A stretch of DNA of 64,000 nt from Verrucomicrobiales bacterium (GCA_024233305.1 JACKPV010000023.1:590789-654788); one strand, 5' to 3'. Shown: positions 13,189 through 45,098, numbered from the stretch's first letter. The notes: generated by a model not told the origin, from the sequence alone. Made by a program: numbers and translations.

Positions 13189-13394
13189 GGTGCGGGCTTG
13201 TGTCAGGCTGCGGCGCGAGTCTACCCCGGCCCGGCGGCCGGGGGAACCTCGAAGTGTCCCGAATCCCCCGACGTCGGGTTTGGGAGTCCCGAACGGCTTT
13301 GCCGGCAGCGGGCGGGTCGCGCGACATCGGAGACAGGGATCCGGGGCGAAGTTCCGCTTACGTCCGGCCTGAGTCCGCGGTAAAGATAGCGGGC

Positions 13395-15527
13395 GTGAAA
13401 GCCATCCTCCGCCGGTTACGATCCGGTTCTGCGGGGCCCGTTCCTGGCATCCCGTTAGCGTTCCTCCTTTCAAGCTGTCTGCTGGCGGTGGTTGCCGGCG
13501 AGCGCACCCAGCGTTTTGCCGCCACGTCACCGGGAGAGGCTGCCCAATGGCGGGAGGCGACGCGGGAGGCCCTGTTCCGCCTGATGATGGGCGGTCGCCG
13601 GCCGGCCGCTGTGCCGCTGGATCCGGTGTTGCTGCGGCATGAGCCGGCGGGGGCCGACGGCATCCGGCTCGAAGAACTCTCGATCCAGACCCTGCCGGAC
13701 CGGCGCGTGCATCTCTGGCTGGCACTGCCGTCGGAGGCCCGCGGGCGGGTGGGAGCGGTGCTGGCGCTCCACGGCCACGGCGGGACCGGGGAACAGGTGG
13801 TGCGCGGACAGGGCTTGTATTGGTACGGTCGCGCGCTGGCCCGCCTGGGCTACGTGGTGATCGCGCCGGACATCGGACAGCACATTTTGCAGCACGCGGA
13901 CTGGAGCCTGATGGGCGAACGAACCTGGGACGCCCTCCGCTGTCTGGATTATCTCGAAACCCGGCCGGAGGTGGACGCCGACCGCCTGGCGGTGGCGGGG
14001 CTTTCGTTGGGCGGGGAAACCACGATGTATGTCGCCGCGCTGGATGAACGCATCAAGGCCGCTTGCAGCAGCGGTTGGCTGACGACCGTGGCGAACATGA
14101 AGAACGGTCACTGCCCTTGCTGGGACTTCCCCGGCCTGGAAGCGCACTTTGATTTCGCCGACATCTTCGCGTGCGTGGCGCCGCGGCCGTTGGTGATGGA
14201 GATCGGCGAATTGGAACGGGCGCCCGGCGGGTTTCCGGTCGGGATCGCCCGCGGGGCATTTGCCGAAATTCGGCGGGCCTATGCGGTGAGCGGGGTCGGC
14301 AGCAACGCGGAACTGGTCGTCCATCCGTCCGGGCATGTCTTCAACGGGGTCCGGTTCTGGGAGATCCTGGGCGATGGGTTGGGCCGGCCGGAGCGGAGGG
14401 AGGAGGGTGATCCGAAATCCGAGAGTGCCGAAGTCCGGTTTCTCGCGGATGCCGCCCGGCGTCTGCTGGAAGGGTGCCAGGTTCCCGGTGTGGGTGGGCA
14501 TCCGTTCTACACCCCCGACGGCAAGGGCAATTACCGCGCGCTATGGACGCGGGATTTCACCTACATGGTCGAGAACGCCGGCGACCTCATCCCTGAGGCG
14601 GACGTCGAAGCCTGCATTCAGGCCCTCGTGGCCGGCATCCGGGAGGATGGCGCCGCGCCGGATCGCGTGCGTCCGGAAGGCGTGGCGGTTTACACGGCCG
14701 GGGGCGAAGGGCATCCTATTGGCGAACCGAACATCGACAACGCGCAGTTCCTCGCCATCGCCGTGGACACACACTTGCGACGCGTCGACCCGTTCGGCCG
14801 CCTGGCGCTCTTCCGGGCTTGGTCCGGACCGCTGGATCGCGCGATGGACTACATCCCGCGCGGTGGGAGCGGGCTGGTCTACAATGATCCGGCGAAGCCC
14901 CATTCACCATACGGGTTCACGGATACCATCGGGAAGACGGGCGAACTGCTGTTCGAGTCGTTGCTGTATTGGACAGCCTGCCAACGACTGGCGGATTGGC
15001 ATGAAGCCTTGGGCGGGCCGCGGGCGGGCGAGTATCGTCGGCGGGCGGCCCTGATCGAATCGAACCTGGCAACGCTCTGGGACGACGACGCGGGGGCGTT
15101 CGTGGCGGCGACGGAGGATTGCCGGCAACTCGACATCTGGGGCAACGCCTTCGCGGTCTGGCTGGACTTCCCGCTGGGCGACCGGCGCGAGCGGGTGATC
15201 GACTTCCTCGTCTCGCAGCGGGAACGATTCCTCTGGCGCGGCCAGGTGCGGCATTTGCTGGCGGGCGAACACTGGGAACGGTTGCTGGTGCCCATCGCGC
15301 CGGAGCGCTATCAAAACGGGGCCTACTGGGCGACCGCCTCCGGCTGGATGATGTGGGCCCTCGCGCAACGGGACGAGCACCTCGCGCGCGACCTTTGGGA
15401 CGAGTTGATTCAGGACTTCCGCGAACGCGGGATCTTCGAGTGCATCAACGAAGGCTACACGCAGCTCGACAGCTATGTGGTGAGCGCGACCAATCCCCTG
15501 GCGGCCGCGCGACGCCTCGGGTTTTGA
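13395..15527 (+). CDS. Two-domain hydrolase: alpha/beta-hydrolase (esterase-like) N-terminus fused to an (alpha/alpha)6-barrel glycoside-hydrolase-like C-terminus
   Basis: The N-terminal half has LALHGHGGTGE and the nucleophile elbow AGLSLGG. The C-terminal half has ALWTRDFTYMVEN, NIDNAQFLAI and YQNGAYWATASGWMMWAL. The GTG start at 13395 is a guess (signal-like LAFLLSSCLLAVVAG). The stop TGA at 15525..15527 lies inside the MITE target duplication. Confidence 0.7.
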   Translation: MKAILRRLRSGSAGPVPGIPLAFLLSSCLLAVVAGERTQRFAATSPGEAAQWREATREALFRLMMGGRRPAAVPLDPVLLRHEPAGADGIRLEELSIQTLPDRRVHLWLALPSEARGRVGAVLALHGHGGTGEQVVRGQGLYWYGRALARLGYVVIAPDIGQHILQHADWSLMGERTWDALRCLDYLETRPEVDADRLAVAGLSLGGETTMYVAALDERIKAACSSGWLTTVANMKNGHCPCWDFPGLEAHFDFADIFACVAPRPLVMEIGELERAPGGFPVGIARGAFAEIRRAYAVSGVGSNAELVVHPSGHVFNGVRFWEILGDGLGRPERREEGDPKSESAEVRFLADAARRLLEGCQVPGVGGHPFYTPDGKGNYRALWTRDFTYMVENAGDLIPEADVEACIQALVAGIREDGAAPDRVRPEGVAVYTAGGEGHPIGEPNIDNAQFLAIAVDTHLRRVDPFGRLALFRAWSGPLDRAMDYIPRGGSGLVYNDPAKPHSPYGFTDTIGKTGELLFESLLYWTACQRLADWHEALGGPRAGEYRRRAALIESNLATLWDDDAGAFVAATEDCRQLDIWGNAFAVWLDFPLGDRRERVIDFLVSQRERFLWRGQVRHLLAGEHWERLLVPIAPERYQNGAYWATASGWMMWALAQRDEHLARDLWDELIQDFRERGIFECINEGYTQLDSYVVSATNPLAAARRLGF

Positions 15528-15615
15528 GGTGCGCATCTCAGCTCTTTCGGAGCGCGGAATTCATTCCGCAGCAAGGTTGACTCCCGGCGGGGTCTGCGGA
15601 GTGAATTCCGCGCTC

Positions 15616-17571
15616 GTGCGCCTGTGAGGGCGTCCATATTGCGAGGTGAAAGTCCTCGTCAGGCGGTTCATTCACCCGCCTGTGACCGAAGGCTACTGCG
15701 TCGTGGCAACACGGGGTGGAGAGCTGCCGGAGGTGAACCATCGGTCCGTAACGAAGCGAAGTGAGACAACGAAGCCATGTGAACCCGATTCGGCCACGCC
15801 GAGCGGCGAGCCTGCGAGCGCTGTGCGAAGCCCAGGCCATGACCCAAGTGGGAGGACTTCCCTCGGTCGGCACCAGGCGACCGGGTCTTCTGGCTGGCGG
15901 TCCCGGCAGAGGAAGAGTGGATGGAGACAAATGCCCGGACTGGCGCGGTGGGGTGGTTGGGGACGGAACGATGGGAAGCATGGGCGAAGGAAGCAGGGAG
16001 ACCCGTCGGGGAACAGAACGGTGTTCATGGCCGCAAGGTCCGAAGAGCCGCCCGGCGGGAGTCAGAGCGTCCATAGTAGCGAGGAAGCGGGGTAACGCCC
16101 GGGGAGCGAAGGGGCGCAGGGAAGTGGAGACGGAACGACCATGACGAACGACGAACGCCAAGAACGACCGGCGATAGTGTCTGGGGCAACCCAGGCTAAA
16201 CAAGCCGGAGAGGTCCGCGCCCCTGGGTGGTGGATCCAACGTTCGGTATGGACGGACCGGATGCTAACGCGGCTCGCCCAAAGCGGGTCGACAACGGTAT
16301 GGTTCGGACTCTGGGACAAAGTCTGCGCGCTGCGGAACCTGCAGGCCGCTTTCCACGCGGTATGGCGGAACCGGGGTGCTCCCGGAGTGGATGGACAAAC
16401 GGTGCAACAGTTCGACCAACAGGGGACGAGCGAATTGGCCCGCCTGGGGGAAGAATTGCGCACCGGGAGCTACCGCCGCCAACCGGCGCGGCGCGTCTGG
16501 ATCGGGAAAATGGGCACGACCGAGAAGCGACCGCTGGGCATCCCGGCGGTGCGGGACCGGACCGTGGAAGCGGCCTTGCGCAATGTTCTGGAGCCGATCT
16601 TGGAGCGGGACTTTGCCGAGTGCAGCTATGGGTTTCGACCGGGACGTGGCTGTCGGGAAGCGGTGGGAAGGGTGGAAGAGTGGATGAGCCAAGGCTACGT
16701 CTGGTGCGTGGACGCGGACCTCAAGAGCTACTTTGACACCATTCCGCATGAGGGACTGATGGCGTTGGTCAAACAGCGAGTGGTGGATGGCAGGGTCCTG
16801 GCGCTGGTGGAACAATGCCTGAAGGCCGGCGTGCTGGAAACGCTCAAGGGCTGGCAGCCGACCGAACGCGGGACCCCGCAGGGGGCCGTGATCAGTCCGC
16901 TCCTGGCGAACCTGTATCTCAACCCGTTGGACCAGGAGATGGAACGGCGGGGCTGGGCGATGGTGCGCTATGCGGATGATTTGGTGGTGCTGTGCCGGAG
17001 CCGGGAAGCGGCCGAGACGGTGCTGGACTATCTGCGGGAGTGGACCACGGGAGCGGGGCTGACCCTGCACCCGACCAAGACCCGGATAGTGAACGCCACC
17101 GACGAGGGATTCGATTTCCTGGGCTGGCACTTCCGCGGGGGGAAGAAATGGCCGCGGAAGAAGAGCCGCAAGAAGCTGCCGGAGCGGTTGCGACCGCTGA
17201 CGCGACGGACCCACGGGCGAAGCCTGGGGGAAATCATCGCGAAAGTGAACCCGATCCTGCGGGGTTGGCTCGGCTACTTCCGGGACAGTTACCCGACGGG
17301 CCTGAGTGGCCCGGATGGGTGGCTGCGCCGCCGCTTGCGGGCGCTGCTGCGCAAGCGGGAGAAGCGGCCCGGACACGGGCTGAGTGAAGCCGACAGCCGA
17401 CGCTGGCCGAACCGCTGGTTTGCGGCGCAGGGCTTGTTTAGTCTGGAACATGGCTCGCGCGCTTACAGTTAGTCTCGCCGAGACCCCACTGACCGGAGAG
17501 CCGTATGCGGGAAATCCGCCCGTACGGTTCGGAGGGAGGGGTGGCGCTAATCCCGTCATCCCTACCCCTAT
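15616..17571 (+). mobile_element. Group II intron, copy 1 (1956 nt, IIC-like)
   Basis: The 5' end is GTGCGCC and the 3' end is CCCCTAT. Domain V is GAGCCGTATGCGGGAAATCCGCCCGTACGGTTC at 17498..17530 (AGC triad, GAAA loop, bulge), followed by a domain VI-like helix. The ORF sits in domain IV. Confidence 0.9.
16141..17472 (+). CDS. Group II intron reverse transcriptase/maturase (no endonuclease domain)
   Basis: RT motifs present: RRVWIGKMGTTEKRPLGIP, GFRPGRGCREA, DADLKSYFDTIPH, GTPQGAVISPLLANLYL and VRYADDLVVLC (YADD). The maturase X motif is ILRGWLGYFR. The protein is 443 aa and ends shortly after the X domain. Confidence 0.92.
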   Translation: MTNDERQERPAIVSGATQAKQAGEVRAPGWWIQRSVWTDRMLTRLAQSGSTTVWFGLWDKVCALRNLQAAFHAVWRNRGAPGVDGQTVQQFDQQGTSELARLGEELRTGSYRRQPARRVWIGKMGTTEKRPLGIPAVRDRTVEAALRNVLEPILERDFAECSYGFRPGRGCREAVGRVEEWMSQGYVWCVDADLKSYFDTIPHEGLMALVKQRVVDGRVLALVEQCLKAGVLETLKGWQPTERGTPQGAVISPLLANLYLNPLDQEMERRGWAMVRYADDLVVLCRSREAAETVLDYLREWTTGAGLTLHPTKTRIVNATDEGFDFLGWHFRGGKKWPRKKSRKKLPERLRPLTRRTHGRSLGEIIAKVNPILRGWLGYFRDSYPTGLSGPDGWLRRRLRALLRKREKRPGHGLSEADSRRWPNRWFAAQGLFSLEHGSRAYS

Positions 17572-17655
17572 CAACTCTTCGGGCCGCACGGAGTCGGAAA
17601 ACACTGAGATGCGCACGGTTTTGAGGTCGGTCGAACTGCGGGCTTGCTTCCTGTG

Positions 17656-20022: not shown

Positions 20023-20106
20023 GACCACCGAGCTTCCACGGGCGCGGCGCCGCGTCAAGTTCGGGCAGCCGGTGGACGCACGGCGGCGCGCATCCCGGCT
20101 TCTTCG

Positions 20107-22062
20107 ATAGGGGTAGGGATGACGGGATTAGCGCCACCCCTCCCTCCGAACCGTACGGGCGGATTTCCCGCATACGGCTCTCCGGTCAGTGGGGTCTCGG
20201 CGAGACTAACTGTAAGCGCGCGAGCCATGTTCCAGACTAAACAAGCCCTGCGCCGCAAACCAGCGGTTCGGCCAGCGTCGGCTGTCGGCTTCACTCAGCC
20301 CGTGTCCGGGCCGCTTCTCCCGCTTGCGCAGCAGCGCCCGCAAGCGGCGGCGCAGCCACCCATCCGGGCCACTCAGGCCCGTCGGGTAACTGTCCCGGAA
20401 GTAGCCGAGCCAACCCCGCAGGATCGGGTTCACTTTCGCGATGATTTCCCCCAGGCTTCGCCCGTTGGTCCGTCGCGTCAGCGGTCGCAACCGCTCCTGC
20501 AGCTTCTTGCGGCTCTTCTTCCGCGGCCATTTCTTCCCCCCGCGGAAGTGCCAGCCCAGGAAATCGAATCCCTCGTCGGTGGCGTTCACTATCCGGGTCT
20601 TGGTCGGGTGCAGGGTCAGCCCCGCTCCCGTGGTCCACTCCCGCAGATAGTCCAGCACCGTCTCGGCCGCTTCCCGGCTCCGGCACAGCACCACCAAATC
20701 ATCCGCATAGCGCACCATCGCCCAGCCCCGCCGTTCCATCTCCTGGTCCAACGGGTTGAGATACAGGTTCGCCAGGAGCGGACTGATCACGGCCCCCTGC
20801 GGGGTCCCGCGTTCGGTCGGCTGCCAGCCCTTGAGCGTTTCCAGCACGCCGGCCTTCAGGCATTGTTCCACCAGCGCCAGGACCCTGCCATCCACCACTC
20901 GCTGTTTGACCAACGCCATCAGTCCCTCATGCGGAATGGTGTCAAAGTAGCTCTTGAGGTCCGCGTCCACGCACCAGACGTAGCCTTGGCTCATCCACTC
21001 TTCCACCCTTCCCACCGCTTCCCGACAGCCACGTCCCGGTCGAAACCCATAGCTGCACTCGGCAAAGTCCCGCTCCAAGATCGGCTCCAGAACATTGCGC
21101 AAGGCCGCTTCCACGGTCCGGTCCCGCACCGCCGGGATGCCCAGCGGTCGCTTCTCGGTCGTGCCCATTTTCCCGATCCAGACGCGCCGCGCCGGTTGGC
21201 GGCGGTAGCTCCCGGTGCGCAATTCTTCCCCCAGGCGGGCCAATTCGCTCGTCCCCTGTTGGTCGAACTGTTGCACCGTTTGTCCATCCACTCCGGGAGC
21301 ACCCCGGTTCCGCCATACCGCGTGGAAAGCGGCCTGCAGGTTCCGCAGCGCGCAGACTTTGTCCCAGAGTCCGAACCATACCGTTGTCGACCCGCTTTGG
21401 GCGAGCCGCGTTAGCATCCGGTCCGTCCATACCGAACGTTGGATCCACCACCCAGGGGCGCGGACCTCTCCGGCTTGTTTAGCCTGGGTTGCCCCAGACA
21501 CTATCGCCGGTCGTTCTTGGCGTTCGTCGTTCGTCATGGTCGTTCCGTCTCCACTTCCCTGCGCCCCTTCGCTCCCCGGGCGTTACCCCGCTTCCTCGCT
21601 ACTATGGACGCTCTGACTCCCGCCGGGCGGCTCTTCGGACCTTGCGGCCATGAACACCGTTCTGTTCCCCGACGGGTCTCCCTGCTTCCTTCGCCCATGC
21701 TTCCCATCGTTCCGTCCCCAACCACCCCACCGCGCCAGTCCGGGCATTTGTCTCCATCCACTCTTCCTCTGCCGGGACCGCCAGCCAGAAGACCCGGTCG
21801 CCTGGTGCCGACCGAGGGAAGTCCTCCCACTTGGGTCATGGCCTGGGCTTCGCACAGCGCTCGCAGGCTCGCCGCTCGGCGTGGCCGAATCGGGTTCACA
21901 TGGCTTCGTTGTCTCACTTCGCTTCGTTACGGACCGATGGTTCACCTCCGGCAGCTCTCCACCCCGTGTTGCCACGACGCAGTAGCCTTCGGTCACAGGC
22001 GGGTGAATGAACCGCCTGACGAGGACTTTCACCTCGCAATATGGACGCCCTCACAGGCGCAC
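20107..22062 (-). mobile_element. Group II intron, copy 2 (1956 nt) in a decayed MITE
   Basis: Same ends and length as copy 1, on the minus strand. The 5' flank hairpin arm is CTGCGGAATGAATTCCGCGCTC. A degenerate terminus GCGCGCATCCCGG at 20086..20098 matches the MITE end at 10 of 13 positions. Confidence 0.9.
20206..21537 (-). CDS. Group II intron reverse transcriptase/maturase
   Basis: 443 aa. It matches the copy-4 RT except H to N in RRTNGRS. Relative to copy 1 it also has Q for P in KKLQERL. Confidence 0.92.
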   Translation of the reverse strand: MTNDERQERPAIVSGATQAKQAGEVRAPGWWIQRSVWTDRMLTRLAQSGSTTVWFGLWDKVCALRNLQAAFHAVWRNRGAPGVDGQTVQQFDQQGTSELARLGEELRTGSYRRQPARRVWIGKMGTTEKRPLGIPAVRDRTVEAALRNVLEPILERDFAECSYGFRPGRGCREAVGRVEEWMSQGYVWCVDADLKSYFDTIPHEGLMALVKQRVVDGRVLALVEQCLKAGVLETLKGWQPTERGTPQGAVISPLLANLYLNPLDQEMERRGWAMVRYADDLVVLCRSREAAETVLDYLREWTTGAGLTLHPTKTRIVNATDEGFDFLGWHFRGGKKWPRKKSRKKLQERLRPLTRRTNGRSLGEIIAKVNPILRGWLGYFRDSYPTGLSGPDGWLRRRLRALLRKREKRPGHGLSEADSRRWPNRWFAAQGLFSLEHGSRAYS

Positions 22063-22173
22063 GAGCGCGGAATTCATTCCGCAGCAAGCTTGACGGCCGG
22101 TGGGGCCAGCGGAATGAACCCCGTGCACCATTTCCCCAGCCGCCTCGGACTTGTGAAAAGCTGCGCCGTGACC

Positions 22174-23162: not shown

Positions 23163-23273
23163 GGGCGCTTCGCGATTTGAGGCGCCGGGAGCGCCCCGGA
23201 CAGAATTTTGAAATTCCGTGTCAGGGTTTGGCCCCGGATTACGCCATTCCCTCATGAACGGACCGTGTCAGCG

Positions 23274-24406
23274 ATGAACGCCGAAGCCAAAGCCAGCGAT
23301 TGTCCCGAGCGCGACATCTTCTTCGAAGCCATCGAAAAGGCATCGGAGGAAGAGCGCGCGGCGTACGTCGAGGTGGCCTGCGGCGAGGATGCGGCCCTGC
23401 GTCGGCGCGTCGAGGTCCTGCTGACCGACCATTCCGAGGACGACGAGTTCATGCGGACCCCGGTCGCGGAGATTGTGGCCCTGGATACACCCAACGCGGC
23501 AACACTGGAACAACCCGGCACCCTGATCGGCCGCTACCGGCTACTGGAACCACTCGGCGAAGGCGGGTTCGGCGTGGTCCATCTGGCGGACCAACAGGAG
23601 CCGATCCGCCGCCAGGTCGCCCTGAAGATCATCAAGCTGGGCATGGACACCCGGCAGGTCATCGCCCGCTTCGAGGCCGAGCGGCAGGCCCTGGCGATGA
23701 TGGACCATCCCAACATCGCCAAGGTGCTCGATGCCGGGGTCACGGAGACTGGACGTCCCTACTTCGTCATGGAACGGGTCCGGGGCATTCCGATCACGCG
23801 GTTCTGCGAGGAAAACCGACTCTCGATCGAGGGACGCCTCGAACTCCTCATCCCCGTCTGCCACGCCATCCAGCATGCCCACCAGAAGGTGATCATTCAC
23901 CGGGACATCAAGCCCTCGAACGTCCTGGTCACGGGCAGTCCCGATGGTTCGGGCCACCCGATGGTGATCGACTTCGGAGTCGCCAAGGCCATCGAGGAAC
24001 CGCTTACCGACAAGCCGCTCCACACCAGCCTGCTCCAGATGATCGGCACGCCGGCTTACATGAGCCCCGAGCAGGCCGAGCGGGGACCGGGCGGCGTCAG
24101 CGATGTGGACACCCGCAGCGACGTCTATTCGCTGGGCATCCTGCTTTATGAACTCCTCACCGGCACCACGCCTTTTCCCGAGGAACGGCTGCGAGAAGCC
24201 GGGTTCGCCGAGATTCAACGGATCCTCAGCCAGGAGGAACCGCAGCAGCCGTCCGCCCGCCTTGCGGAAATCCAGGGGAGCACACGCGCCCCCGCGTGTC
24301 CCCGACCGGCGCCCCCGCCGGTTGGCTCTGGAAAGGGGGCTGGGGCCGGAAGTGAAAACGGATTCGACGGGGGCGTCGAATCCTGCACGCGAGGGCGCGT
24401 GCGCTC
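23274..24406 (+). CDS. Ser/Thr protein kinase, exon 1 (interrupted by group II intron copy 3)
   Basis: Hanks kinase motifs present: GEGGFGVVHLA, VALKIIK, IIHRDIKPSNVLV, DFGVAKA, GTPAYMSPEQ and DVYSLGILLYELLTG. The ORF-track tail beyond 24406 reads into the intron. Confidence 0.85.
24278..24406 (+). repeat. 129-nt hairpin cluster inside the kinase ORF, immediately 5' of intron copy 3
   Basis: Four local hairpins with C4 or G-rich tetraloops: 24282..24299 (ACACGCG-CCCC-CGCGTGT), 24305..24322 (ACCGGCG-CCCC-CGCCGGT), 24360..24383 (GGATTCGACG-GGGG-CGTCGAATCC) and 24385..24402 (GCACGCG-AGGG-CGCGTGC). The outer 21 nt are also mutually complementary, with 2 mismatches. Confidence 0.7.
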
Positions 24407-26362
24407 GTGCGCCTGTGAGGGCGTCCATATTGCGAGGTGAAAGTCCTCGTCAGGCGGTTCATTCACCCGCCTGTGACCGAAGGCTACTGCGTCGTGGCAA
24501 CACGGGGTGGAGAGCTGCCGGAGGTGAACCATCGGTCCGTAACGAAGCGAAGTGAGACAACGAAGCCATGTGAACCCGATTCGGCCACGCCGAGCGGCGA
24601 GCCTGCGAGCGCTGTGCGAAGCCCAGGCCATGACCCAAGTGGGAGGACTTCCCTCGGTCGGCACCAGGCGACCGGGTCTTCTGGCTGGCGGTCCCGGCAG
24701 AGGAAGAGTGGATGGAGACAAATGCCCGGACTGGCGCGGTGGGGTGGTTGGGGACGGAACGATGGGAAGCATGGGCGAAGGAAGCAGGGAGACCCGTCGG
24801 GGAACAGAACGGTGTTCATGGCCGCAAGGTCCGAAGAGCCGCCCGGCGGGAGTCAGAGCGTCCATAGTAGCGAGGAAGCGGGGTAACGCCCGGGGAGCGA
24901 AGGGGCGCAGGGAAGTGGAGACGGAACGACCATGACGAACGACGAACGCCAAGAACGACCGGCGATAGTGTCTGGGGCAACCCAGGCTAAACAAGCCGGA
25001 GAGGTCCGCGCCCCTGGGTGGTGGATCCAACGTTCGGTATGGACGGACCGGATGCTAACGCGGCTCGCCCAAAGCGGGCCGACAACGGTATGGTTCGGAC
25101 TCTGGGACAAAGTCTGCGCGCTGCGGAACCTGCAGGCCGCTTTCCACGCGGTATGGCGGAACCGGGGTGCTCCCGGAGTGGATGGACAAACGGTGCAACA
25201 GTTCGACCAACAGGGGACGAGCGAATTGGCCCGCCTGGGGGAAGAATTGCGCACCGGGAGCTACCGCCGCCAACCGGCGCGGCGCGTCTGGATCGGGAAA
25301 ATGGGCACGACCGAGAAGCGACCGCTGGGCATCCCGGCGGTGCGGGACCGGACCGTGGAAGCGGCCTTGCGCAATGTTCTGGAGCCGATCTTGGAGCGGG
25401 ACTTTGCCGAGTGCAGCTATGGGTTTCGACCGGGACGTGGCTGTCGGGAAGCGGTGGGAAGGGTGGAAGAGTGGATGAGCCAAGGCTACGTCTGGTGCGT
25501 GGACGCGGACCTCAAGAGCTACTTTGACACCATTCCGCATGAGGGACTGATGGCGTTGGTCAAACAGCGAGTGGTGGATGGCAGGGTCCTGGCGCTGGTG
25601 GAACAATGCCTGAAGGCCGGCGTGCTGGAAACGCTCAAGGGCTGGCAGCCGACCGAACGCGGGACCCCGCAGGGGGCCGTGATCAGTCCGCTCCTGGCGA
25701 ACCTGTATCTCAACCCGTTGGACCAGGAGATGGAACGGCGGGGCTGGGCGATGGTGCGCTATGCGGATGATTTGGTGGTGCTGTGCCGGAGCCGGGAAGC
25801 GGCCGAGACGGTGCTGGACTATCTGCGGGAGTGGACCACGGGAGCGGGGCTGACCCTGCACCCGACCAAGACCCGGATAGTGAACGCCACCGACGAGGGA
25901 TTCGATTTCCTGGGCTGGCACTTCCGCGGGGGGAAGAAATGGCCGCGGAAGAAGAGCCGCAAGAAGCTGCAGGAGCGGTTGCGACCGCTGACGCGACGGA
26001 CCCACGGGCGAAGCCTGGGGGAAATCATCGCGAAAGTGAACCCGATCCTGCGGGGTTGGCTCGGCTACTTCCGGGACAGTTACCCGACGGGCCTGAGTGG
26101 CCCGGATGGGTGGCTGCGCCGCCGCTTGCGGGCGCTGCTGCGCAAGCGGGAGAAGCGGCCCGGACACGGGCTGAGTGAAGCCGACAGCCGACGCTGGCCG
26201 AACCGCTGGTTTGCGGCGCAGGGCTTGTTTAGTCTGGAACATGGCTCGCGCGCTTACAGTTAGTCTCGCCGAGACCCCACTGACCGGAGAGCCGTATGCG
26301 GGAAATCCGCCCGTACGGTTCGGAGGGAGGGGTGGCGCTAATCCCGTCATCCCTACCCCTAT
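24407..26362 (+). mobile_element. Group II intron, copy 3 (1956 nt), inside the kinase ORF in sense orientation
   Basis: Same GTGCGCC...CCCCTAT ends and length as the other copies, anchored by conserved internal ORF offsets. Confidence 0.9.
24932..26263 (+). CDS. Group II intron reverse transcriptase/maturase
   Basis: 443 aa. It matches the copy-4 RT except S to P in LAQSGPTTVW. Confidence 0.92.
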   Translation: MTNDERQERPAIVSGATQAKQAGEVRAPGWWIQRSVWTDRMLTRLAQSGPTTVWFGLWDKVCALRNLQAAFHAVWRNRGAPGVDGQTVQQFDQQGTSELARLGEELRTGSYRRQPARRVWIGKMGTTEKRPLGIPAVRDRTVEAALRNVLEPILERDFAECSYGFRPGRGCREAVGRVEEWMSQGYVWCVDADLKSYFDTIPHEGLMALVKQRVVDGRVLALVEQCLKAGVLETLKGWQPTERGTPQGAVISPLLANLYLNPLDQEMERRGWAMVRYADDLVVLCRSREAAETVLDYLREWTTGAGLTLHPTKTRIVNATDEGFDFLGWHFRGGKKWPRKKSRKKLQERLRPLTRRTHGRSLGEIIAKVNPILRGWLGYFRDSYPTGLSGPDGWLRRRLRALLRKREKRPGHGLSEADSRRWPNRWFAAQGLFSLEHGSRAYS

Positions 26363-35936: not shown

Positions 35937-36300
35937 ACGAGAGATCTACAGTCGAACGCCGGCAGGGTAGTCATTTCAAGTGGTCATGTCAAACGACGGG
36001 TCGCTCTGGAGAAAAGAGAGGCCGGTCCTGAAGGCGGACACTGGTCTGCTCAGCGGTCATCCCCTGCGCTTGTGCCGGTCCTGGGGCAACAGGCTCGACG
36101 CCTTCGTCCACGCTTCCCTGGGCAGCCTTTCAGCCAGCCGCTTCAGCCTCATCGTGGGCTCCTGCGGCAGTCTGTGGCGTGCGCATCTCAGTTTTTTCAC
36201 AGCGAGGGAGAAATGGTGGTGTGAACGAAGCGCCACCGGCTGAAAAATAGTGTCATTTTAGACGGGACTCTGATCCTCCCCTTCGCCATAGTCCGCGGGC

Positions 36301-37212
36301 GTGACGGAGTGCGAAGTGATTCAAGGCCGGCGGATGGGCCCCGGGGATCTGACCCAGGTCAAGGACCTCCTGGCCCGGCATCCGGACTGGAGCCGATACC
36401 GTTTGAGCCGGGAACTGGCGCAGTTGTGGGCGTGGCGCAGCGCGGCGGGCCAACTCAAGGACATGGCCGCCCGGAGCCTGCTGCTCAAGCTCGAGCAGCG
36501 CGGCTGGATCACCCTGCCACCCTGCCGCTGGGCCTCGCCCAACCGGATGCGCCACAAACGCCCGCCCTCCCTGCCAGCGTCGTTCCATCCGGAGCCGCTA
36601 CCGGGCCCCTTGTCGGCGCTGCGACCGCTCAAGCTCAGCGAAGTCAGTGCCGGACCGGCGACCGAGCGGGCCCTGTTTGAAGGGTTGCTGCACCGCTATC
36701 ACTATCTGAGCCACCGCAGCCCGGTAGGGGAGAACCTCCAGTATTTGGTGCGGGAACGGGCCGGGCGACCGGTGGCCTGCCTGCTCTTTGGCGCGGCGGC
36801 TTGGCAGTGCGCCGATCGCGACCGCCACATCGGCTGGGATCGCGCCACGCGGGCGGCCCAGCTTCCTCTGATCGCCAACAACACGCGCTTCCTGATCCTG
36901 CCTTGGATTGGCGTGCCGGGACTCGCCAGCCATCTCCTGGCCCGCGTCAGCCGCCGGGTCCGGGCCGACTGGCAGCGCAAGTACGGGCACCCGGTTTATC
37001 TGCTGGAGACCTTTGTCGAGACCGGGCGTTTCGCCGGCACCTGTTATCGCGCGGCCAACTGGCAACGCGTTGGTCAGACCAAAGGTCGTAGCCGGCAGGA
37101 CTCCCCGGAGGGCGGAGCGCTGCAGGTCCCTCGCAAAGACGTCTATCTCTACCCGCTGATTCCCCGCTACGCCGAACGCTTGCGGGCAGTCCCCAACCCC
37201 ACCCATCCATGA
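36301..37212 (+). CDS. DUF4338-domain protein (IS accessory ORF)
   Basis: YHYLSHRSPVGENLQYLVRERAGRPVACLLFGAAAWQCADRDRHIGW...FLILPWIGVPGLASHLL...GHPVYLLETFVETGRFAGTCYRAANWQRVGQTKGR. The stop overlaps the transposase start (ATGA at 37209). Confidence 0.75.
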   Translation: MTECEVIQGRRMGPGDLTQVKDLLARHPDWSRYRLSRELAQLWAWRSAAGQLKDMAARSLLLKLEQRGWITLPPCRWASPNRMRHKRPPSLPASFHPEPLPGPLSALRPLKLSEVSAGPATERALFEGLLHRYHYLSHRSPVGENLQYLVRERAGRPVACLLFGAAAWQCADRDRHIGWDRATRAAQLPLIANNTRFLILPWIGVPGLASHLLARVSRRVRADWQRKYGHPVYLLETFVETGRFAGTCYRAANWQRVGQTKGRSRQDSPEGGALQVPRKDVYLYPLIPRYAERLRAVPNPTHP

Positions 37213-37836
37213 GCCCAGAAATCCCCCCCTCCGTTCCTCGCCGCTCCCGCCGACCCCACGTTAAAGTCCGCCGCGAGCAGCGCCGCCAAGCCCAAGAACA
37301 ACAACCCCTCACCGAGGAGATCCTGACGGCGGGCCAGGCGGCGGCGCAAGCCGCTGCCACCCTCTCCCAAGTGTGCCTCACCGAGGCCGAAGTGGCCGCC
37401 TGGCGCCAGGACCTGGAAAAGCGACTGGCCAGCCTCCAGGAGCACCCCGAACAGAACCTGGGCTTCATCGAGGAGCAACTCGCCCTGGCCAGCCGGGAAT
37501 CCATCCGCCTGCTGGCCGAGCGGGCCGCCCAGGCCAAGGCCAACGCCACCCCTTGCCAGTGCCTCACCTGCCAGCAACCCCTGCGGCGGCAGCGCTATCT
37601 GGCCCGCACCATCGAGTCGCGCTTCGGCCCCTTGCGGGTGTTCCGCAACTACGGCTGGTGCCCCAAGTGCGACGCGTGGCAGTTCCCGGCCGATCCCGCC
37701 TTGGCATTGAGTCGCCATGCCCCCGCTTCCCCCTATGTCCAGGAGATGGCCGCGCTGCTGGTAAGCAAAATGCCCCCCGAGCAGGCCGTGCCGGTGGCCC
37801 AACGCATGGGACTCCAACTCTCCCGCTGCACCCTCG
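37209..37836 (+). pseudogene. ISKra4-family transposase, N-terminal fragment (split by the IS21-like insertion)
   Basis: It carries the Zn-finger-like CQCLTCQQPLRRQRYLARTIESRFGPLRVFRNYGWCPKCDAWQFPAD. The reading frame continues exactly at 41709 once 37837..41708 is removed. Confidence 0.75.
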
Positions 37837-37949
37837 TGCGTAGCGACAATTAAAACTTTCCAGTGACGATTATCGGATTGGCGGTGGTTTGGGGATGATG
37901 AGGCGGCGGCCCCGCCCGAGGCCAGAAGGCCTCGGGGGGGCTGCCGCGA

Positions 37950-38460
37950 ATGATCACCAAACAACATTACCGAAAACTGATGAGCGAGTATCAAGAGACT
38001 GGAAACGTGAGCGTGAGCGCCATGAAGGCGGGGATGAGCCGGCCGACGGCGCAGAAGTATCTGAAGGCGGGTCAACCGCCGCAGGAACTTCAAGGGAAGC
38101 ACACTTGGCGGACGCGGGAGGATCCTTTGGAGGAGATCTGGCCGCAGGCTTTGGTGATGCTTGAGGAGAGCCCGGATCTGGAGGCGAAGGCTCTCTTCGA
38201 ATACCTGGGGGAACGGTCGCCGTGGGCGGTGCAGGAGAAGCAACTGCGGACCTTTCAGCGGCGGGTCAAGGTGTGGCGTCTGCAACATGGGCCGGACAAG
38301 GAGGTCTTTTTTCCTCAGGACTGGGAAGCCGGACGGGCGATCCAGTTGGACTGGACCAATGCGAACGAGCTGGCGGTGACTATCAGCGGGCAGCCATACG
38401 AGCACCAGCTTTGCCACTGCGTGTTGCCCCATTCCAACTGGGACTGGGCCACCCGGTGTT
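37950..38460 (+). pseudogene. istA: IS21-family transposase IstA, N-terminal fragment
   Basis: The HTH N-terminus is MITKQHYRKLMSEYQETGNVSVSAMKAGMSRPTAQKYLK. It is intact to ...HSNWDWATRC and then runs into the IS3-like left end. Confidence 0.75.
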
Positions 38461-38520
38461 TGGATCTCCCCCGATTTCGTGGACAGGGAGGGCGCAGTCA
38501 GCGAAGAAAGACCGACTGAC

Positions 38521-38853
38521 ATGCCCAAAACCAGACCTGCCTACACCGAAGAGTTCCGCCAGCAGGCGGTCCAACTGCTCCTGGACAGCGGTCGCCCCCT
38601 GGACCGGGTGGCCGCCGAACTGGGCGTCTCCGCCAACTCCCTCCGTTCCTGGCGGGACCGTTCCCTGGGCCGGGGGCGTGGAGCGCAGGCCCCTTCGACG
38701 CAGTCGAAGGGCCGGAGCGCAACGCCCCCGGCCCACGCCGCCGAGCAGATCCGCCAGCTCCACCGCGAGGTCCAATACCTCCGCCGCCAGCGCGACATCC
38801 TAAAAAAAGCCATGAGCATACTGGCCGGGGAACCGCAGGGCAGTATGCACTGA
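38521..38853 (+). CDS. IS3-family OrfA (HTH + leucine-zipper-like)
   Basis: MPKTRPAYTEEFRQQAVQLLLDSGRPLDRVAAELGVSANSLRSWR...QLHREVQYLRRQRDILKKA. Confidence 0.85.
   Translation: MPKTRPAYTEEFRQQAVQLLLDSGRPLDRVAAELGVSANSLRSWRDRSLGRGRGAQAPSTQSKGRSATPPAHAAEQIRQLHREVQYLRRQRDILKKAMSILAGEPQGSMH
38802..38808 (+). promoter_or_regulatory. A7 slippery run, candidate programmed -1 frameshift site for the OrfAB fusion
   Basis: AAAAAAA followed by G lies within orfA. The -1 frame is open from here (KKSHEHTGRGTAGQYALIDQLRSHFPL) into orfB, as is usual for the IS3 family. Confidence 0.55.
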
Positions 38854-38861
38854 TCGATCAA

Positions 38862-39728
38862 TTGCGGTCCCACTTTCCCCTCACCGAGCTCTGTGATGCC
38901 CTCGCCGTTTCCCGCTCCGGTTACCACGCCTCCCGCCGCCGCCAGCCCGGGCCCCGCGCCCGCCAGCAGGTGGTCCTGCTCCAGGCCATTGAGAAGGTCC
39001 GCGCCCATCGCCATGCCCGCTGTTACGGCAGTCCCCGGATGACTCATCAACTCCGTCGCCAGGGCCATCAGGTCTCCGAGAACCGTGTCGCCCGCCTCAT
39101 GCGCGCCAACCACCTGCGCGCCCGGCCCCGGCGTCCCTACCGACCCAAGACCACCCAGCCCGACCACGCTGCCTGTCCCTCCCCCAACCTCCTGGCCAGC
39201 GCGCCCGCCCCTACCGCCCCAGGCCAGCAACTGGTCAGCGACATCACCTACATTCCCACCGCCGAGGGCTGGCTCTACCTGGCCCTGGTCGTGGATCGTT
39301 TCAGCCGCAGCGTCTTTGGCTGGCACTTGGCCGACTCCCTTCACGCGGACCTGGTTTGCCACGCCCTGGACCACGCCCACCGCACCGGCCTGATCGGCCC
39401 CCAAGCGATCTTCCACTCCGATCGGGGCTGCCAATACACCGCCGCCCTCCTGCGCGGCCAACTCGCCCGCCTGGGCCTGCGCCAGAGCATGAGCGCCCGA
39501 GGGCATTGCTATGACAACGCCATGGCCGAAAGCGTCTTTGCCGCTCTCAAGGCCGAGGCCCTGCCCCCCGAGCAGCCCTTCGCCTCCCGGGCCCTGGCCC
39601 GCAGCGCCCTCTTCGACTACCTCGAAACCTTCTACAACCGCCAGCGCCTGCACAGTTCGCTCGGCTACCGGCCACCCCGAGAATTCCTGGATCTCTACTT
39701 CCAAACCCACCCTCTTGCACTACACTGA
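38862..39728 (+). CDS. IS3-family OrfB (DDE integrase core)
   Basis: VSDITYIPTAEGWLYLALVVDRFSRSVFGW, IFHSDRGCQYTA and HCYDNAMAESVFAALKAE give the D, D, E context. It is probably expressed as OrfAB by a frameshift at 38802..38808. Confidence 0.88.
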   Translation: MRSHFPLTELCDALAVSRSGYHASRRRQPGPRARQQVVLLQAIEKVRAHRHARCYGSPRMTHQLRRQGHQVSENRVARLMRANHLRARPRRPYRPKTTQPDHAACPSPNLLASAPAPTAPGQQLVSDITYIPTAEGWLYLALVVDRFSRSVFGWHLADSLHADLVCHALDHAHRTGLIGPQAIFHSDRGCQYTAALLRGQLARLGLRQSMSARGHCYDNAMAESVFAALKAEALPPEQPFASRALARSALFDYLETFYNRQRLHSSLGYRPPREFLDLYFQTHPLALH

Positions 39729-39781
39729 ACTCAACAAAACCCTGCGCCCCGCCTGTCCACTTTTTCGGGGGAAGACCAGTT

Positions 39782-40770
39782 TGTCGGAGTCGCTGCTGTC
39801 CTGCCGCCAGGGGCTCCAGGAAGCGCTGCAGCGCTTGGGCAAGGTGCCGCGGGAACTGCGGGTGGACAACAGCAGCGCGGCGACACACCGCGTCGGTGGC
39901 GGCGGGACGGGGCGTGAGTTCAATGAGCAGTTCGCCTCGCTCTGCGCCCATTACGGGCTGGTGCCGCGCACCATCGGGATCGACCGTCCCAACGAGAACG
40001 GGGATGTCGAGTCGAGCAACGGACATCTGAAGCGGCGCTTGCGGCAGCACTTGCTCTTGCGCGGCAGCCGGGACTTCGAGTCGGAAACGGCCTACGAGCG
40101 ATTCCTGGAGCAGGTGTTGGAGCGTGGCAATCGAAGCCGGCAGGAGAAGGTGGCCGCCGAGTTGGCGGTGATGAAGCCGCTGCCGCCGACGCGGTTGAGC
40201 GAGTATGACGAACTGACCTGCACCGTTGGGATGGCCAGCACGATTCGGGTCAAGAAGGTGGGCTACTCGGTGCCGGCGCGCTTGATTGGCCAAGAGCTCA
40301 AAGTGGAGGTGTACGAGCGCGAGCTCAGGCTCTACAGCGGGCGGGAGTTGTTGCTGGTTCTACCGCGCCAGGGTGGAGATCGGGGTGTGGTGCTCGATTA
40401 CCGCCACGTAATTGACCATCTGTTGCGCAAGCCCGGGGCCTTCGAGCGGTATCGCTATCGGGAGCAGTTGTTTCCCAGCCGGTCGTTTCGGCAAGCGCAC
40501 GATCACCTGGTCGGCAAACACGGTCAGCGTGGTGGCGCGGTCGAGTATTTGCGGTTGCTGAAGTTGGCCAGTGAGGTGGGCGAGAGCGACATCGAAGTGA
40601 TGCTGGCCGATTATCTGACCCCGCCTTATCCGGCCTGGAGTGTTCAGGAACTACGACGCCTCTTGCAGCCCGAGTCCCGGCCGGTGATCGAGCTGATCGA
40701 ACTGCAGCCGGAGTGCCATTCGTATGACGCGCTGTTGAGTCCAGAAACGGAGGTGGCCCATGCCGGCTGA
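39782..40770 (+). pseudogene. istA: IS21-family transposase IstA, C-terminal fragment
   Basis: It resumes with SESLLSCRQGLQEALQRLGKVPRELRVDNSSAATH...PNENGDVESSNGHLKRRL, the DDE region of IstA. Confidence 0.75.
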
Positions 40771-41608
40771 AGGACTGACGGTGCTCTTGCGCGCCTTCCG
40801 CCTGCCGACCATGGCGGCGATTTGGTCGGAGAGTGTCATCCGCGCTGAGCGGGAAGACTGGGGCTACCAACGGTTGCTGCAGCATCTGTGCGAGAGCGAG
40901 GCCCAGGATCGGCGTGAGCGCAAGGTGCAACGGTTGCTCCACGAATCCGGACTGCCGGAGGGCAAGACCCTGGGCAACCTGGAGGAGAAGTTGCTGCCGG
41001 TGAAGATCCGACGGTTGCTGCCGACGCTCCTGGAGGGCCGGTTTGTCGACCGCGGGGAAAACCTGCTGGTCTTTGGTTTGCCCGGGCGTGGCAAGACGCA
41101 CTTCTTGGCGGCGGTGGGCCGCGAGTTGGTTTTGCGTCATCGTTACCCGGTCCTGTTCACCCCGACGTTCAAGCTGGTGCAACGGTTGCTGGCCGCGAAG
41201 CAGGAACTGCGTTTGGAGAGCGAGCTCAAACGGCTGGATCGCTTTGCCGCCGTGATTTTGGACGATATCGGCTACGTGCAGCAGGATCGGCAGGAGATGG
41301 AGGTTCTCTTCACCTTCCTGGCGGAGCGCTATGAGCGGCGCAGCGTGCTGATCAGCAGCAATTTGGTCTTCTCCAAATGGGACCAGATTTTCAAGGACCC
41401 GATGACGACGATGGCGGCGATCGACCGTTTGGTGCATCACGCCACGATCCTGGAGTTCAACAACGAGAGCGTACGCGGGCAGCAGGCGCGCGGTCGGCAG
41501 AAGGGCCAGGCCGACGCACCCGAAGGCCCCTTCGGCTCCACTCCGTCTTTGGCGCCTGACGGCGCCAAAGACTCCGTTCCGCCGAAGGGGCCTTCCCCCC
41601 AAGACTAA
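40760..41608 (+). CDS. istB: IS21-family helper ATPase IstB
   Basis: Walker A is GLPGRGKTH and Walker B is AVILDDIGY. ISSNLVFSKW...DRLVHHATILEF is also present. Confidence 0.88.
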   Translation: MPAEGLTVLLRAFRLPTMAAIWSESVIRAEREDWGYQRLLQHLCESEAQDRRERKVQRLLHESGLPEGKTLGNLEEKLLPVKIRRLLPTLLEGRFVDRGENLLVFGLPGRGKTHFLAAVGRELVLRHRYPVLFTPTFKLVQRLLAAKQELRLESELKRLDRFAAVILDDIGYVQQDRQEMEVLFTFLAERYERRSVLISSNLVFSKWDQIFKDPMTTMAAIDRLVHHATILEFNNESVRGQQARGRQKGQADAPEGPFGSTPSLAPDGAKDSVPPKGPSPQD

Positions 41609-41708
41609 CCCTGGAGAACAGGTGAGGAGAGGAGGATTTCATCCCTGAGCCACTGGCAAAAAATAGTTGTCGCCGGTGCAAAGGAATAATTGTCGTTGAC
41701 CACCCTCG

Positions 41709-42676: not shown

Positions 42677-43015
42677 ACACCCCACACCCTGGACCGCATC
42701 CCCTCCCGCCAAAAACCTGAGATGCGCACGTCTGTGGCCGGCGGTCTGGTGGTTGAAGAATCTGACAGATTAGAAGTTGATGACACGGCTTCCATGGCGT
42801 TCTCTTCCGAGGATTCCTCCAAAACCCCTTCTTCCTTCTTCGGGATACGCTTCTCGGGCGGCGCGCCGATCCTCATGTTCCAAAGAGTCGCGACAAAAGT
42901 GAAAGTGCGCATCTCAGTGTTTTCCGACTCCGTGCGGCCCGAAGAGTCGGAGCGCGGAATTCATTCCGCAGACCCCGCCGGGAGTCAACCTTGCTGCGGA
43001 GTGAATTCCGCGCTC

Positions 43016-44971: not shown

Positions 44972-45098
44972 CGAAAAAGCTGAGATGCGCACAAAGTGAA
45001 ACAGCGGTCTTGGTTTTTTGGCGTGGGGCACATAAGCTCTGGTCATTGAACCCGAGGACAGCGCCCGGCGCGTCTGACCGATTGAAAGCACATATTCC

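Follow-up and report, generated by a model that had tools for sequence, protein, structure and literature searches.

Does a group II intron that sits inside transposon-ended elements travel with those elements, or does it enter them afterwards, one at a time? The question is raised by a 64,000-nt stretch of DNA from a Verrucomicrobiales bacterium (the whole of which we call the window), in which the 13-mer GTGCGCATCTCAG stands at the borders of three units, two of 2,088 bp and one insertion sequence (IS) of 6,551 bp. Exact copies of this 13-mer occur in the window only at 15529+, 17604-, 36179+, 42717-, 42905+ and 44980-, where chance alone would yield about 0.002 exact matches in 2 x 64 kb, and each of the three units is flanked by a perfect 9-bp target duplication, namely GGTTTTGAG (MITE 1), AAAGTGAAA (MITE 4) and GTCTGTGGC (the IS). 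The original prediction had drawn the three units and their duplications in just this way; in the details checked its observations were correct, save for one small correction. The extended terminal motif GTGCGCATCTCAGTNTTTT, which it had assigned to the ends in common, matches just the left end of the IS and one MITE end; position 14 is G or C at the remaining ends, and the motif common to all ends is GTGCGCATCTCAGNNNTTT.

The insertion sequence and the 132-bp elements

The transposase-bearing unit contains two nested insertions, and its ORFs were assigned with Pfam and NCBIfam:

36170..36178, no strand: left copy of the 9-bp IS target duplication (GTCTGTGGC); right copy at 42730-42738
36179..42729, plus strand: ISKra4-like IS, bounded by the MITE-type 13-mer termini; 2,679 bp after removal of the nested insert
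36301-37212: DruA/DUF4338-like ORF of the IS
37209-37836 and 41709-42676: IS transposase, split
37837..41700, plus strand: nested IS21-family element that interrupts the IS transposase, with the 8-bp duplication CACCCTCG at its flanks
about 38467-39772: IS3-family element that interrupts the nested IS21-family element

Deletion of the IS21/IS3 insert together with one copy of the 8-bp duplication restores an uninterrupted transposase ORF of 531 aa. The reconstructed protein scores 189.3 bits with the ISKra4 model NF033572, which is below the curated cut-off of 205 although this is still the top-scoring family, and it is 25-27% identical to annotated ISKra4 transposases; because of this score and this identity, "ISKra4-like" is the right wording. 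Three full-length relatives (L240, L241 and L244; 66-75% amino-acid identity) have the same layout of a DruA-like ORF plus transposase, and their termini are exactly GTGCGCATCTCAG / CTGAGATGCGCAC. With L243, the 13-mer ends are found in four full-length IS relatives, in support of the original prediction. L240 also has a 9-bp duplication, GGAGAAAAG; among the full-length relatives no recognisable target duplication was found in L241, L243 or L244, which could reflect metagenome chimeras or IS-mediated rearrangement.

The other units with these ends, and a decayed third copy, are laid out as follows:

15520..15528, no strand: left copy of the MITE 1 target duplication (GGTTTTGAG), which includes the TGA stop of ORF 13200-15527
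15529..15615, plus strand: MITE 1, left 87 nt, which begins with the terminal repeat GTGCGCATCTCAG followed by the hairpin
15550-15571 (far arm), 15572-15593 (loop) and 15594-15615 (near arm): MITE 1 hairpin, the near arm ending in IBS1 GCGCTC
17572..17616, plus strand: MITE 1, right 45 nt, terminating in CTGAGATGCGCAC
17617..17625, no strand: right copy of the MITE 1 target duplication, 9 bp
20086..22166, minus strand: decayed MITE 2 with intron copy 2 inside
42896..42904, no strand: left copy of the 9-bp MITE 4 target duplication (AAAGTGAAA); right copy at 44993-45001
42905..43015, plus strand: MITE 4, left 111 nt, in the opposite orientation to MITE 1
42950-42971 (far arm), 42972-42993 (loop) and 42994-43015 (near arm): MITE 4 hairpin
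44972..44992, plus strand: MITE 4, right 21 nt, terminating in CTGAGATGCGCAC

Once the 1,956-nt intron is subtracted, MITE 1 and MITE 4 are each 132 bp long and non-coding, and they are 128/132 identical as reverse complements; re-computation gave the same figures as had been reported. The decayed third copy that had been proposed to hold intron copy 2 is real as well. MITE 2 has a 10/13 terminus at 20086-20098 and aligns to MITE 4 over the MITE length, its ends are decayed and it contains internal deletions, its orientation relative to the intron is that of copy 4, and no target duplication is recognisable around it. The MITEs, the window IS and L240 have the identical 13-mer and about 20 nt in common at their ends, and a duplication length of 9 bp is common to MITE 1, MITE 4, the window IS, L240 and two elements from outside the window, L133 and L208. 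The units are small (132 bp without the intron), non-coding and multicopy (three in the window plus homologues). The 132-bp element is a non-autonomous derivative (MITE) of the ISKra4-like IS, as the shared ends of about 20 bp and the 9-bp duplications had been taken to indicate.

The further claim that every MITE copy is occupied by the intron stands for the window, where 3/3 are filled and a BLAST search with the MITE found neither an empty copy nor a further copy of its hairpin, but fails beyond it. Soil metagenomes contain members of this MITE family that are empty and have 9-bp duplications; L133 (133 bp, duplication AGATCGAGG) and L208 (132 bp, duplication CCGCGGGAA) are both empty and align end to end with MITE 4. 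A diverged MITE, L122, holds an intron that is 82.6% identical and whose junction likewise lies 21 nt from the end, and L220 and L235 are decayed or partial related copies. The organism of L122 is another one than that of the window, and a distant one.

The intron and the hairpins that it enters

Four introns, each of exactly 1,956 nt, lie in the window:

15616-17571, plus strand: intron copy 1, with EBS1 GAGCGC at 15815-15820, the ORF for the intron-encoded protein (IEP) at 16141-17472 and domain V/VI at 17496-17571
20107-22062, minus strand: intron copy 2, IEP ORF 20206-21537, inside decayed MITE 2
24385..24406, plus strand: target of copy 3, not a MITE; a short hairpin GCACGCG-AGGG-CGCGTGC with GCTC after it, in a kinase-like ORF
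24407..26362, plus strand: intron copy 3, 1,956 nt, IEP ORF 24932-26263
43016-44971, plus strand: intron copy 4, IEP ORF 43541-44872, whose product equals the four-copy consensus protein

Copy 3 is in sense orientation and in frame inside the kinase-like ORF 23208-28136. Every copy begins GTGCG and ends TAT, in agreement with the GUGYG...AY boundaries, and in 4/4 introns Rfam RF00029 matches domain V/VI at 57.6 bits (gathering score 40), the matches ending at the intron 3' ends. There is one private SNP per copy, and these form a star pattern with no variant common to two composites of MITE and intron.

The IEP (443 aa) scores 377 bits on TIGR04416 (cut-off 300), and in Pfam it matches RVT_1 and GIIM only, with no DNA endonuclease domain. 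Its best solved relatives are the GsI-IIC reverse transcriptase (6ar1, 2.6e-64) and the E. rectale IIC reverse transcriptase (7uim, 3.2e-63), with IIB (1.4e-47) and IIA (1.3e-37) proteins ranking behind. Based on this similarity to solved IIC reverse transcriptases, we classify the intron as putatively class C (IIC)-like. Class C equals IIC, and introns of this class depend more on structure than on sequence (PMC7306698); the best match of the Rfam D1-D4 models to the intron was non-significant (17.8 bits, E = 0.39).

Insertion directly after a stem-loop is seen in 4/4 window copies and in the relatives L117, L122, L249 and L251-L254, some of the intron relatives lying after other REP-like hairpins. 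Each 5' exon in the window ends, after the stem-loop, in GCGCTC, and the first base of the 3' exon is always C. EBS1, at intron nt 200-205, base-pairs with the final 6 nt of the 5' exon; the two covary across relatives (EBS1/IBS1 GAGCGC/GCGCTC, GAGTGC/GCGCTC, GAGTCC/GGACTC and TAGTGC/GCACTA). The junction after the near arm is identical to the nucleotide in 3/3 window MITEs and in L122. IIC introns are known to sit after terminators or other inverted repeats and to use a 3-4 bp IBS1 plus stem-loop (PMC1702495); in the MITE hairpin IBS1 lies inside the base of the stem, whereas its place at canonical IIC sites is after the stem. The position directly after a stem-loop, the EBS1/IBS1 covariation and the IIC-like character of the intron all support the original prediction that the MITE hairpin is a landing pad for the intron.

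This hairpin has a 22-bp stem with one G.T pair, and the two MITE versions fold at -47.6 and -49.7 kcal/mol (z-scores -9.3 and -9.8). On the intron-bearing strand the T.G wobble lies at stem position 15, and this is the same in either MITE orientation. The hairpin is not specific to the MITE: as a palindrome of REP-like type it also occurs widely elsewhere than in MITEs and is common among related environmental bacteria, it is without an intron in 55/55 metagenome instances, and copy 3 of the intron sits at another hairpin.

The order of events and the alternatives

MITEs 1 and 4 differ at 4/132 positions and their introns at 2/1956 (Fisher p = 2e-4), so that the divergence of the MITEs is about 30 times that of the introns; therefore the introns arrived later, and independently. 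Decayed MITE 2 likewise holds a near-identical intron, 2 nt off the others. The MITE came first and the intron later. The near-identity of the introns could in part reflect gene conversion among the copies, not recent arrival.

Given these observations, we consider it highly probable that the locus was built up from an ISKra4-like IS, through its MITE, to later and independent insertions of a IIC-like intron after hairpins. Three selfish DNAs are stacked here: a DDE-type, ISKra4-like IS of 2,679 bp with a DruA-like ORF, a 531-aa transposase and repeats starting GTGCGCATCTCAG, which makes 9-bp duplications; a 132-bp MITE with IS-type ends and the 9-bp duplication, whose core is the REP-like 22-bp-stem palindrome; and the IIC-like group II intron. 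Like other IIC introns, the last would recognise a stem-loop plus a short pairing, with EBS1 GAGCGC paired to IBS1 GCGCTC at the 3' base of the hairpin and reverse splicing immediately after it. Because the palindrome is the same target on either strand, MITE 1 would have received the intron on one strand, MITEs 2 and 4 on the opposite strand; copy 3 would have entered the unrelated short hairpin followed by GCTC in the kinase-like gene. The four insertions would be recent and independent of one another, each the outcome of retrohoming or retrotransposition with a near-identical master sequence as the source, probably by reverse splicing into hairpin-forming single-stranded DNA with endonuclease-free priming, as described for IIC introns. 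If so, the locus is a tidy example of one mobile element parasitising another, in line with the known habits of this intron class.

We regard as unlikely a durable two-tier partnership of the MITE with the IIC intron, in which the MITE, driven by the transposase, spreads a preferred homing hairpin within and between genomes and filled MITEs stay transposable. Were it true, a retroelement would have gained a route by DNA transposition, and the recurrence of this architecture in the distant L122 and the T.G wobble at position 15 would have been left by co-evolution or by 5'-exon co-conversion.

It is very unlikely that the filled copies of the window arose by transposition of the 2.1-kb MITE-plus-intron composite with the ISKra4-like transposase acting in trans, a route that the original prediction had put forward with the caveat, here borne out, that copies 1 and 4 are opposite in MITE orientation. 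The terminal repeats of copies 1 and 4 are intact and their 9-bp duplications perfect, the transposase ORF is undamaged save for the IS21 insertion and its activity would therefore be recent, and the distant L122 agrees with copies 2 and 4 in MITE-intron orientation and in the junction 21 nt from the end. However, the mixed orientations, the divergence of the MITEs relative to the introns that they hold (4/132 vs 2/1956), the internal deletions of decayed MITE 2 around an intron only 2 nt different, and the star of private SNPs leave composite transposition unsupported. Within the window no two composites have a MITE variant and an intron variant in common at distinct target duplications; moreover, copy 3 lies outside any MITE, and the flanks of the related intron-bearing metagenome contigs L117 and L254, which are long enough for the comparison, do not terminate in MITE ends.

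The possibility that the 132-bp flanks are exon sequence that moved together with the intron, such as through retrotransposition of an unspliced transcript, with the repeats and duplications due to intron mobility, is extremely improbable. Although in the window these flanks never occur without the intron, their empty homologues of 132-133 bp (L133 and L208) have perfect 9-bp duplications, a transposase-bearing IS has these very ends in the window, in L240 and in L244, copies 1 and 4 have the flanks in opposite orientation at an unchanged intron junction, and copy 3 and many relatives lack them. That there is no targeting, the coincidence of intron and MITE being due to junk-rich regions or to assembly duplication of a repeat, is scarcely credible even in a window so rich in mobile DNA (IS21, IS3, four introns), given the nucleotide-exact junction in 3/3 MITEs and L122, the EBS1/IBS1 complementarity that is kept and covaries across relatives, and the unique flanks, unique duplication and private SNP of each copy.

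Relation to known systems

Group II introns inside ISKra4 elements have a precedent: within this group of p-MULT4 (Mutator-related) DDE transposons some members carry passenger genes, and ISLdr1 has a group II intron reverse transcriptase (PMC3942029). The window IS resembles the group in its best transposase family match, its terminal inverted repeats and its passenger ORF, but at 189 vs 205 bits and about 25% identity to annotated members it stands apart, and the intron lies in a non-autonomous MITE derivative and not, as in ISLdr1, in the IS. IStrons and the Thiomargarita "MITEtron" join group I introns with an IS or MITE (PMC4853749). There too intron and transposon-type element lie one within the other, but the outer element is a group I intron and the inner one the IS or MITE, whereas here it is the MITE that encloses a group II retroelement, with no sign that the two work as one unit.

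REP sequences are targets of several mobile elements, among them the group II intron of Pseudomonas putida KT2440, which is located in REPs at 2/9 copies (PMC1525189); a repeated extragenic palindrome is the insertion target there as here. In the window, by comparison, palindrome occupancy is 3/3 and the palindrome rides in a MITE, and the covariation shows sister intron lineages retargeted to different REP families.

IIC-attC introns home strand-specifically to a folded hairpin that belongs to another mobile-DNA system. They are associated with the attC hairpins of integron cassettes (PMC7923331). The IIC-like intron described here homes in the same strand-specific way to the hairpin of another mobile element, but its host is a DDE-transposon-derived MITE and not an integron site, and the hairpin sequence family differs.

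Class C introns, for instance B.h.I1 of Bacillus halodurans, lie after intrinsic terminators or other inverted repeats (Robart et al. 2007, via PMC7306698; PMC1702495). Common to those introns and the present one are an endonuclease-less IEP, insertion right after a stem-loop, a short IBS1/EBS1 pairing used with a structural cue, and a multitude of copies spread over different loci, the sequence specificity being relaxed. In contrast to the terminator sites, the preferred stem-loop here is followed by no T-run and is no terminator but a 22-bp REP-like palindrome in a MITE; IBS1/EBS1 reaches up to 6 bp and overlaps the stem base in the MITE hairpin, and one copy lies in frame within a protein-coding gene.

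Shared termini of the MITEs and the ISKra4-like element

In the window there are six exact copies of the 13-mer GTGCGCATCTCAG, far above the chance expectation of about 0.002, and these form three inverted pairs (15529/17604, 36179/42717, and 42905/44980); when three mismatches are allowed, its frequency is not above that in shuffled sequence. Outside every pair lies a direct repeat of 9 bp without a mismatch (GGTTTTGAG, GTCTGTGGC, and AAAGTGAAA), in agreement with the initial description of three units with these ends and target duplications. With their introns (copies 1 and 4) subtracted, two of the units are 132 bp each and 128/132 identical as reverse complements, again as described. Folded as single strands, MITE 1 and MITE 4 form a stem of 22 bp that includes a single G.T pair and is enclosed by the paired termini, with energies of -47.6 and -49.7 kcal/mol and z-scores near -9.5. 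The decayed third copy proposed around intron copy 2 aligns with MITE 4 over its whole length; one of its ends is partly missing, and a large part of one arm is gone. A search of the window found no empty MITE and no further copy of the MITE hairpin. At 15520-15528, MITE 1 is inserted exactly at the stop codon of a hydrolase-like ORF (13200-15527), the end of which is kept because the TGA falls inside the duplicated 9 bp.

The third unit, of 6,551 bp, encodes a DruA/DUF4338-like ORF and two halves of an ISKra4-like transposase, which are parted by an IS21-family element that is in turn split by an IS3-family element.

Insertions in the ISKra4-like IS
37837-41700: IS21-family insert, with the 8-bp duplication CACCCTCG at 37829-37836 and 41701-41708
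about 38467-39772: IS3-family element inside istA of the IS21-family element (triple nesting)

This IS copy is thus disabled by nested insertions, as had been noted. Taking out the insert and one copy of CACCCTCG gives a 2,679-bp IS in which a 531-aa ORF runs without interruption, and the inactivation is therefore recent. ISKra4 is the best family for the restored transposase at 189 bits, under the curated cut-off of 205, and identity to annotated ISKra4 transposases is only 25-27%; on these scores "ISKra4-like" is the right wording. Metagenomes contain many members of the transposase family, usually on contigs of 2.7-3.2 kb. Four full-length relatives (L240, L241, L243, and L244) keep the layout of DruA-like ORF and transposase at 66-75% identity, and both ends of every one are exactly the window 13-mer, which corroborates the view that IS and MITE share their termini. 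L240 has a 9-bp duplication (GGAGAAAAG); none was found at the ends of L241, L243, or L244. The DruA-like ORF (36301-37212) lies directly upstream of the transposase, with a 4-nt overlap with its start, and is a conserved passenger in all full-length relatives examined (L239-L245).

Scanning metagenomes with the hairpin arm yielded at least 116 loci. Among the matches listed, L133 (133 bp) and L208 (132 bp) match MITE 4 from one end to the other and share its termini, and each lies between perfect 9-bp duplications (AGATCGAGG and CCGCGGGAA). Neither holds an intron. The 132-bp element is thus a true non-autonomous transposon that also exists in empty form. The claim that every MITE is occupied thus holds within the window (3/3) but not elsewhere. 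A scan of genome contigs with GTGCGCATCTCAGNNNTTT was unspecific, with many matches inside a conserved housekeeping gene. Among the matches listed from Verrucomicrobiota MAGs, the same terminus stands at the head of IS ends and of intron-free, MITE-like inverted-repeat units of 74-135 bp. Two such MAG units lie between exact 13-mer pairs (L021, 3959-4032, 74 bp; L047, 2356-2445, 90 bp), with no recognisable 9-bp duplication at either; the L047 unit carries a short, empty GAGCGCG...CGCGCTC hairpin.

Class and targets of the intron

Four group II introns of 1,956 nt each are present.

Group II introns in the window
15616-17571 (+): copy 1, in MITE 1
20107-22062 (-): copy 2, in the decayed MITE 2
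24407-26362 (+): copy 3, outside a MITE
43016-44971 (+): copy 4, in MITE 4

In all four, a significant Rfam match to domain V/VI extends to the last base of the intron, and each copy encodes an intact 443-aa intron-encoded protein (IEP) with reverse transcriptase (RT) and maturase domains and without an endonuclease domain. The closest solved proteins are the GsI-IIC RT (2.6e-64) and the E. rectale IIC RT (3.2e-63), and IIC reverse transcriptases are well ahead of IIB and IIA proteins as matches. The Rfam D1-D4 models gave no ribozyme classification. The intron most likely belongs to class C/IIC. The IEP has more than 8,000 homologous proteins, the best 93% identical, and many are on contigs of ~2 kb; no exact match to the consensus IEP was found. 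For a host protein of the window (51789-53870), the single exact match was on a 10-kb contig from the short-read run SRR12358675.

In all four copies the 5' exon has GCGCTC as its last six nucleotides, with the intron directly behind a stem-loop, and the 3' exon starts with C. Intron nucleotides 200-205 (GAGCGC) are complementary to the 5'-exon end, and this EBS1 position covaries with the 5'-exon end (IBS1) in relatives with usable flanks (GAGCGC/GCGCTC, GAGTGC/GCGCTC, GAGTCC/GGACTC, and TAGTGC/GCACTA), which are placed after other REP-like hairpins and at times inside hairpin arrays. The intron works like a class C/IIC intron, with a REP-like palindrome as its target in place of a terminator; the hairpin as an intrinsic terminator is ruled out, there being no T-run after it on either strand. 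The proposal that the hairpin is a landing pad is upheld by the stem-loop-adjacent junction and the EBS1/IBS1 pairing. IIC introns are described as lying downstream of terminators "or other inverted repeats", with a short IBS1 and the stem-loop as the means of 5'-exon recognition (PMC1702495; PMC7306698), and the window intron and its relatives show the same behavior. The landing pad is accounted for by this known IIC biology, and no new mechanism is revealed.

Copy 3 follows the short hairpin GCACGCG-AGGG-CGCGTGC plus GCTC, and therefore a MITE is not required as a target. The long MITE hairpin is occupied in 3/3 cases in the window, where at least three short perfect hairpins followed by GCTC and C are free.

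Potential target sites without intron
1489 (+): short perfect hairpin + GCTC + C
62118 (+): short perfect hairpin + GCTC + C
24278 (-): short perfect hairpin + GCTC + C

These very small numbers suggest that the intron prefers the MITE hairpin. Copy 3 is in sense orientation and in frame within a Ser/Thr-kinase-like gene (23208-28136); 23208-24406 joined to 26363-28136 gives a single uninterrupted 990-aa ORF, so splicing is predicted to restore the protein. IIC-like introns normally lie outside genes, and the position of copy 3 is unusual.

The first 6 nt of the far arm of the MITE 1 hairpin at 15550-15555 (GAGCGC) are identical to EBS1 at 15815-15820; IBS1 would therefore be sequestered in the stem base, and EBS1 must compete with the far arm. 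In L251, L252, and L253 (JGI 3300059600), ~80% identical introns sit inside short REP-like hairpin arrays (GCAGGCTAAAGCCTGC, GCCGCCTAAAGGCGG), with partial 5' intron fragments close by and EBS1 retargeted to GCACTA. L121 (3473-7401) holds two tandem copies of an 88%-identical intron with an 8-nt spacer (CGGCGCTC), within a ~120-bp repeat; the second copy evidently used GCGCTC after the first.

Order of insertion

Each of the four introns has one private substitution relative to the consensus, a star pattern. MITE 1 and MITE 4 differ at 4/132 positions, whereas their introns differ at 2/1956 (Fisher p = 2e-4), and even the intron of the decayed MITE 2 is 2 nt from the others. Furthermore, MITE 1 and MITE 4 have opposite orientations with respect to the intron, which bears out the earlier argument for independent intron insertions. 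The simplest reading is a recent burst of independent insertions into MITEs already present. Gene conversion among the introns could make the age contrast look larger than it is, yet it cannot account for the opposite orientations. It had also been posited that MITE and intron could move as one ~2.1-kb composite with DDE-transposon ends, mobilized in trans by the IS transposase. The perfect ends of copies 1 and 4 would in principle permit this. However, the idea is unsupported: the age contrast, the opposite orientations, and copy 3 outside a MITE give no sign of a filled MITE having transposed, and the intron contigs L117 and L254, checked for the MITE-terminus ends indicative of composite amplification, had none. 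We favor recent independent insertions.

The association is also found in L122, from a different sample and organism. Its intron, 82.6% identical to that of the window, lies inside a diverged MITE, whose termini read GGGCGCATCTC... and whose hairpin is a compensated variant (GGACATTCTTGTCC / GGACAGGAATGTCC), at the same junction, 21 nt from the element end. The MITE-intron association thus recurs, as expected if the hairpin is a favored target. On the intron-bearing strand of MITE 1 and MITE 4, G at -15 in the near arm faces a far-arm T (a T.G wobble at stem position 15), and the wobble strand is constant (hairpins 15550-15615 and 42950-43015) although copies 1 and 4 carry flanks and loop in opposite orientation. 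This wobble makes up two of the four MITE 1/4 differences and is present in L122 (3400-3472, filled) and in the empty L036 and L142; copy 2 has A at -15 and a perfect T-A pair. Co-conversion of the 5' exon or target preference is a possible origin of the wobble.

The palindrome and related systems

The hairpin arm is present in 129 instances among the metagenome loci listed, 55 with a recognisable partner arm, and nearly all of these 55 lie in unique sequence without MITE termini. None of the 55 palindromes is followed by an intron, no intron DNA is present in any of the at least 116 hairpin-bearing metagenome loci examined, and none was found in the Verrucomicrobiota loci listed. The palindrome behaves like a repeat of the REP type, one that happens to lie in the MITE.

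Close parallels are IIC introns at integron attC hairpins (PMC7923331), a P. putida group II intron in REPs at 2/9 copies (PMC1525189), group II introns "hiding" in mobile elements (PMC7306698), and ISLdr1, an ISKra4-group element with a group II intron RT (PMC3942029). A group I intron is combined with a MITE in Thiomargarita (PMC4853749); full-text literature searches turned up no description of a group II intron with a MITE specifically as its host. The window offers a clean three-level case of one mobile element living on another, from IS to MITE to the group II intron inside the MITE, with an order of events readable directly from the sequence. With it, the known targets of IIC-like introns, terminators and attC sites, come to include REP-like palindromes on MITEs, and the natural EBS1/IBS1 covariation shows by what route sister lineages of the intron acquire other palindrome families as targets. 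In the annotation of genomes from Verrucomicrobiota/Planctomycetota-like bacteria, this case accounts for a recurrent 2.1-kb repeat and many contig breaks.

Many members of the palindrome family have GTTGAC or GTCAAC in an otherwise variable loop (window 15572-15593 and 42972-42993; L133, L208, L134, L165, L169, L122, and L036). The conserved motif could be a putative protein-binding site or -35-like box; for the loop TTGAC as a promoter element, the -10 match is weak. L135 (1946-2300) shows a different repeat organisation of the hairpin sequence, a tandem array of at least four 89-nt units, every one with the far arm only (GAGCGCGGAATTCATTCCGCAG) and no partner arm.
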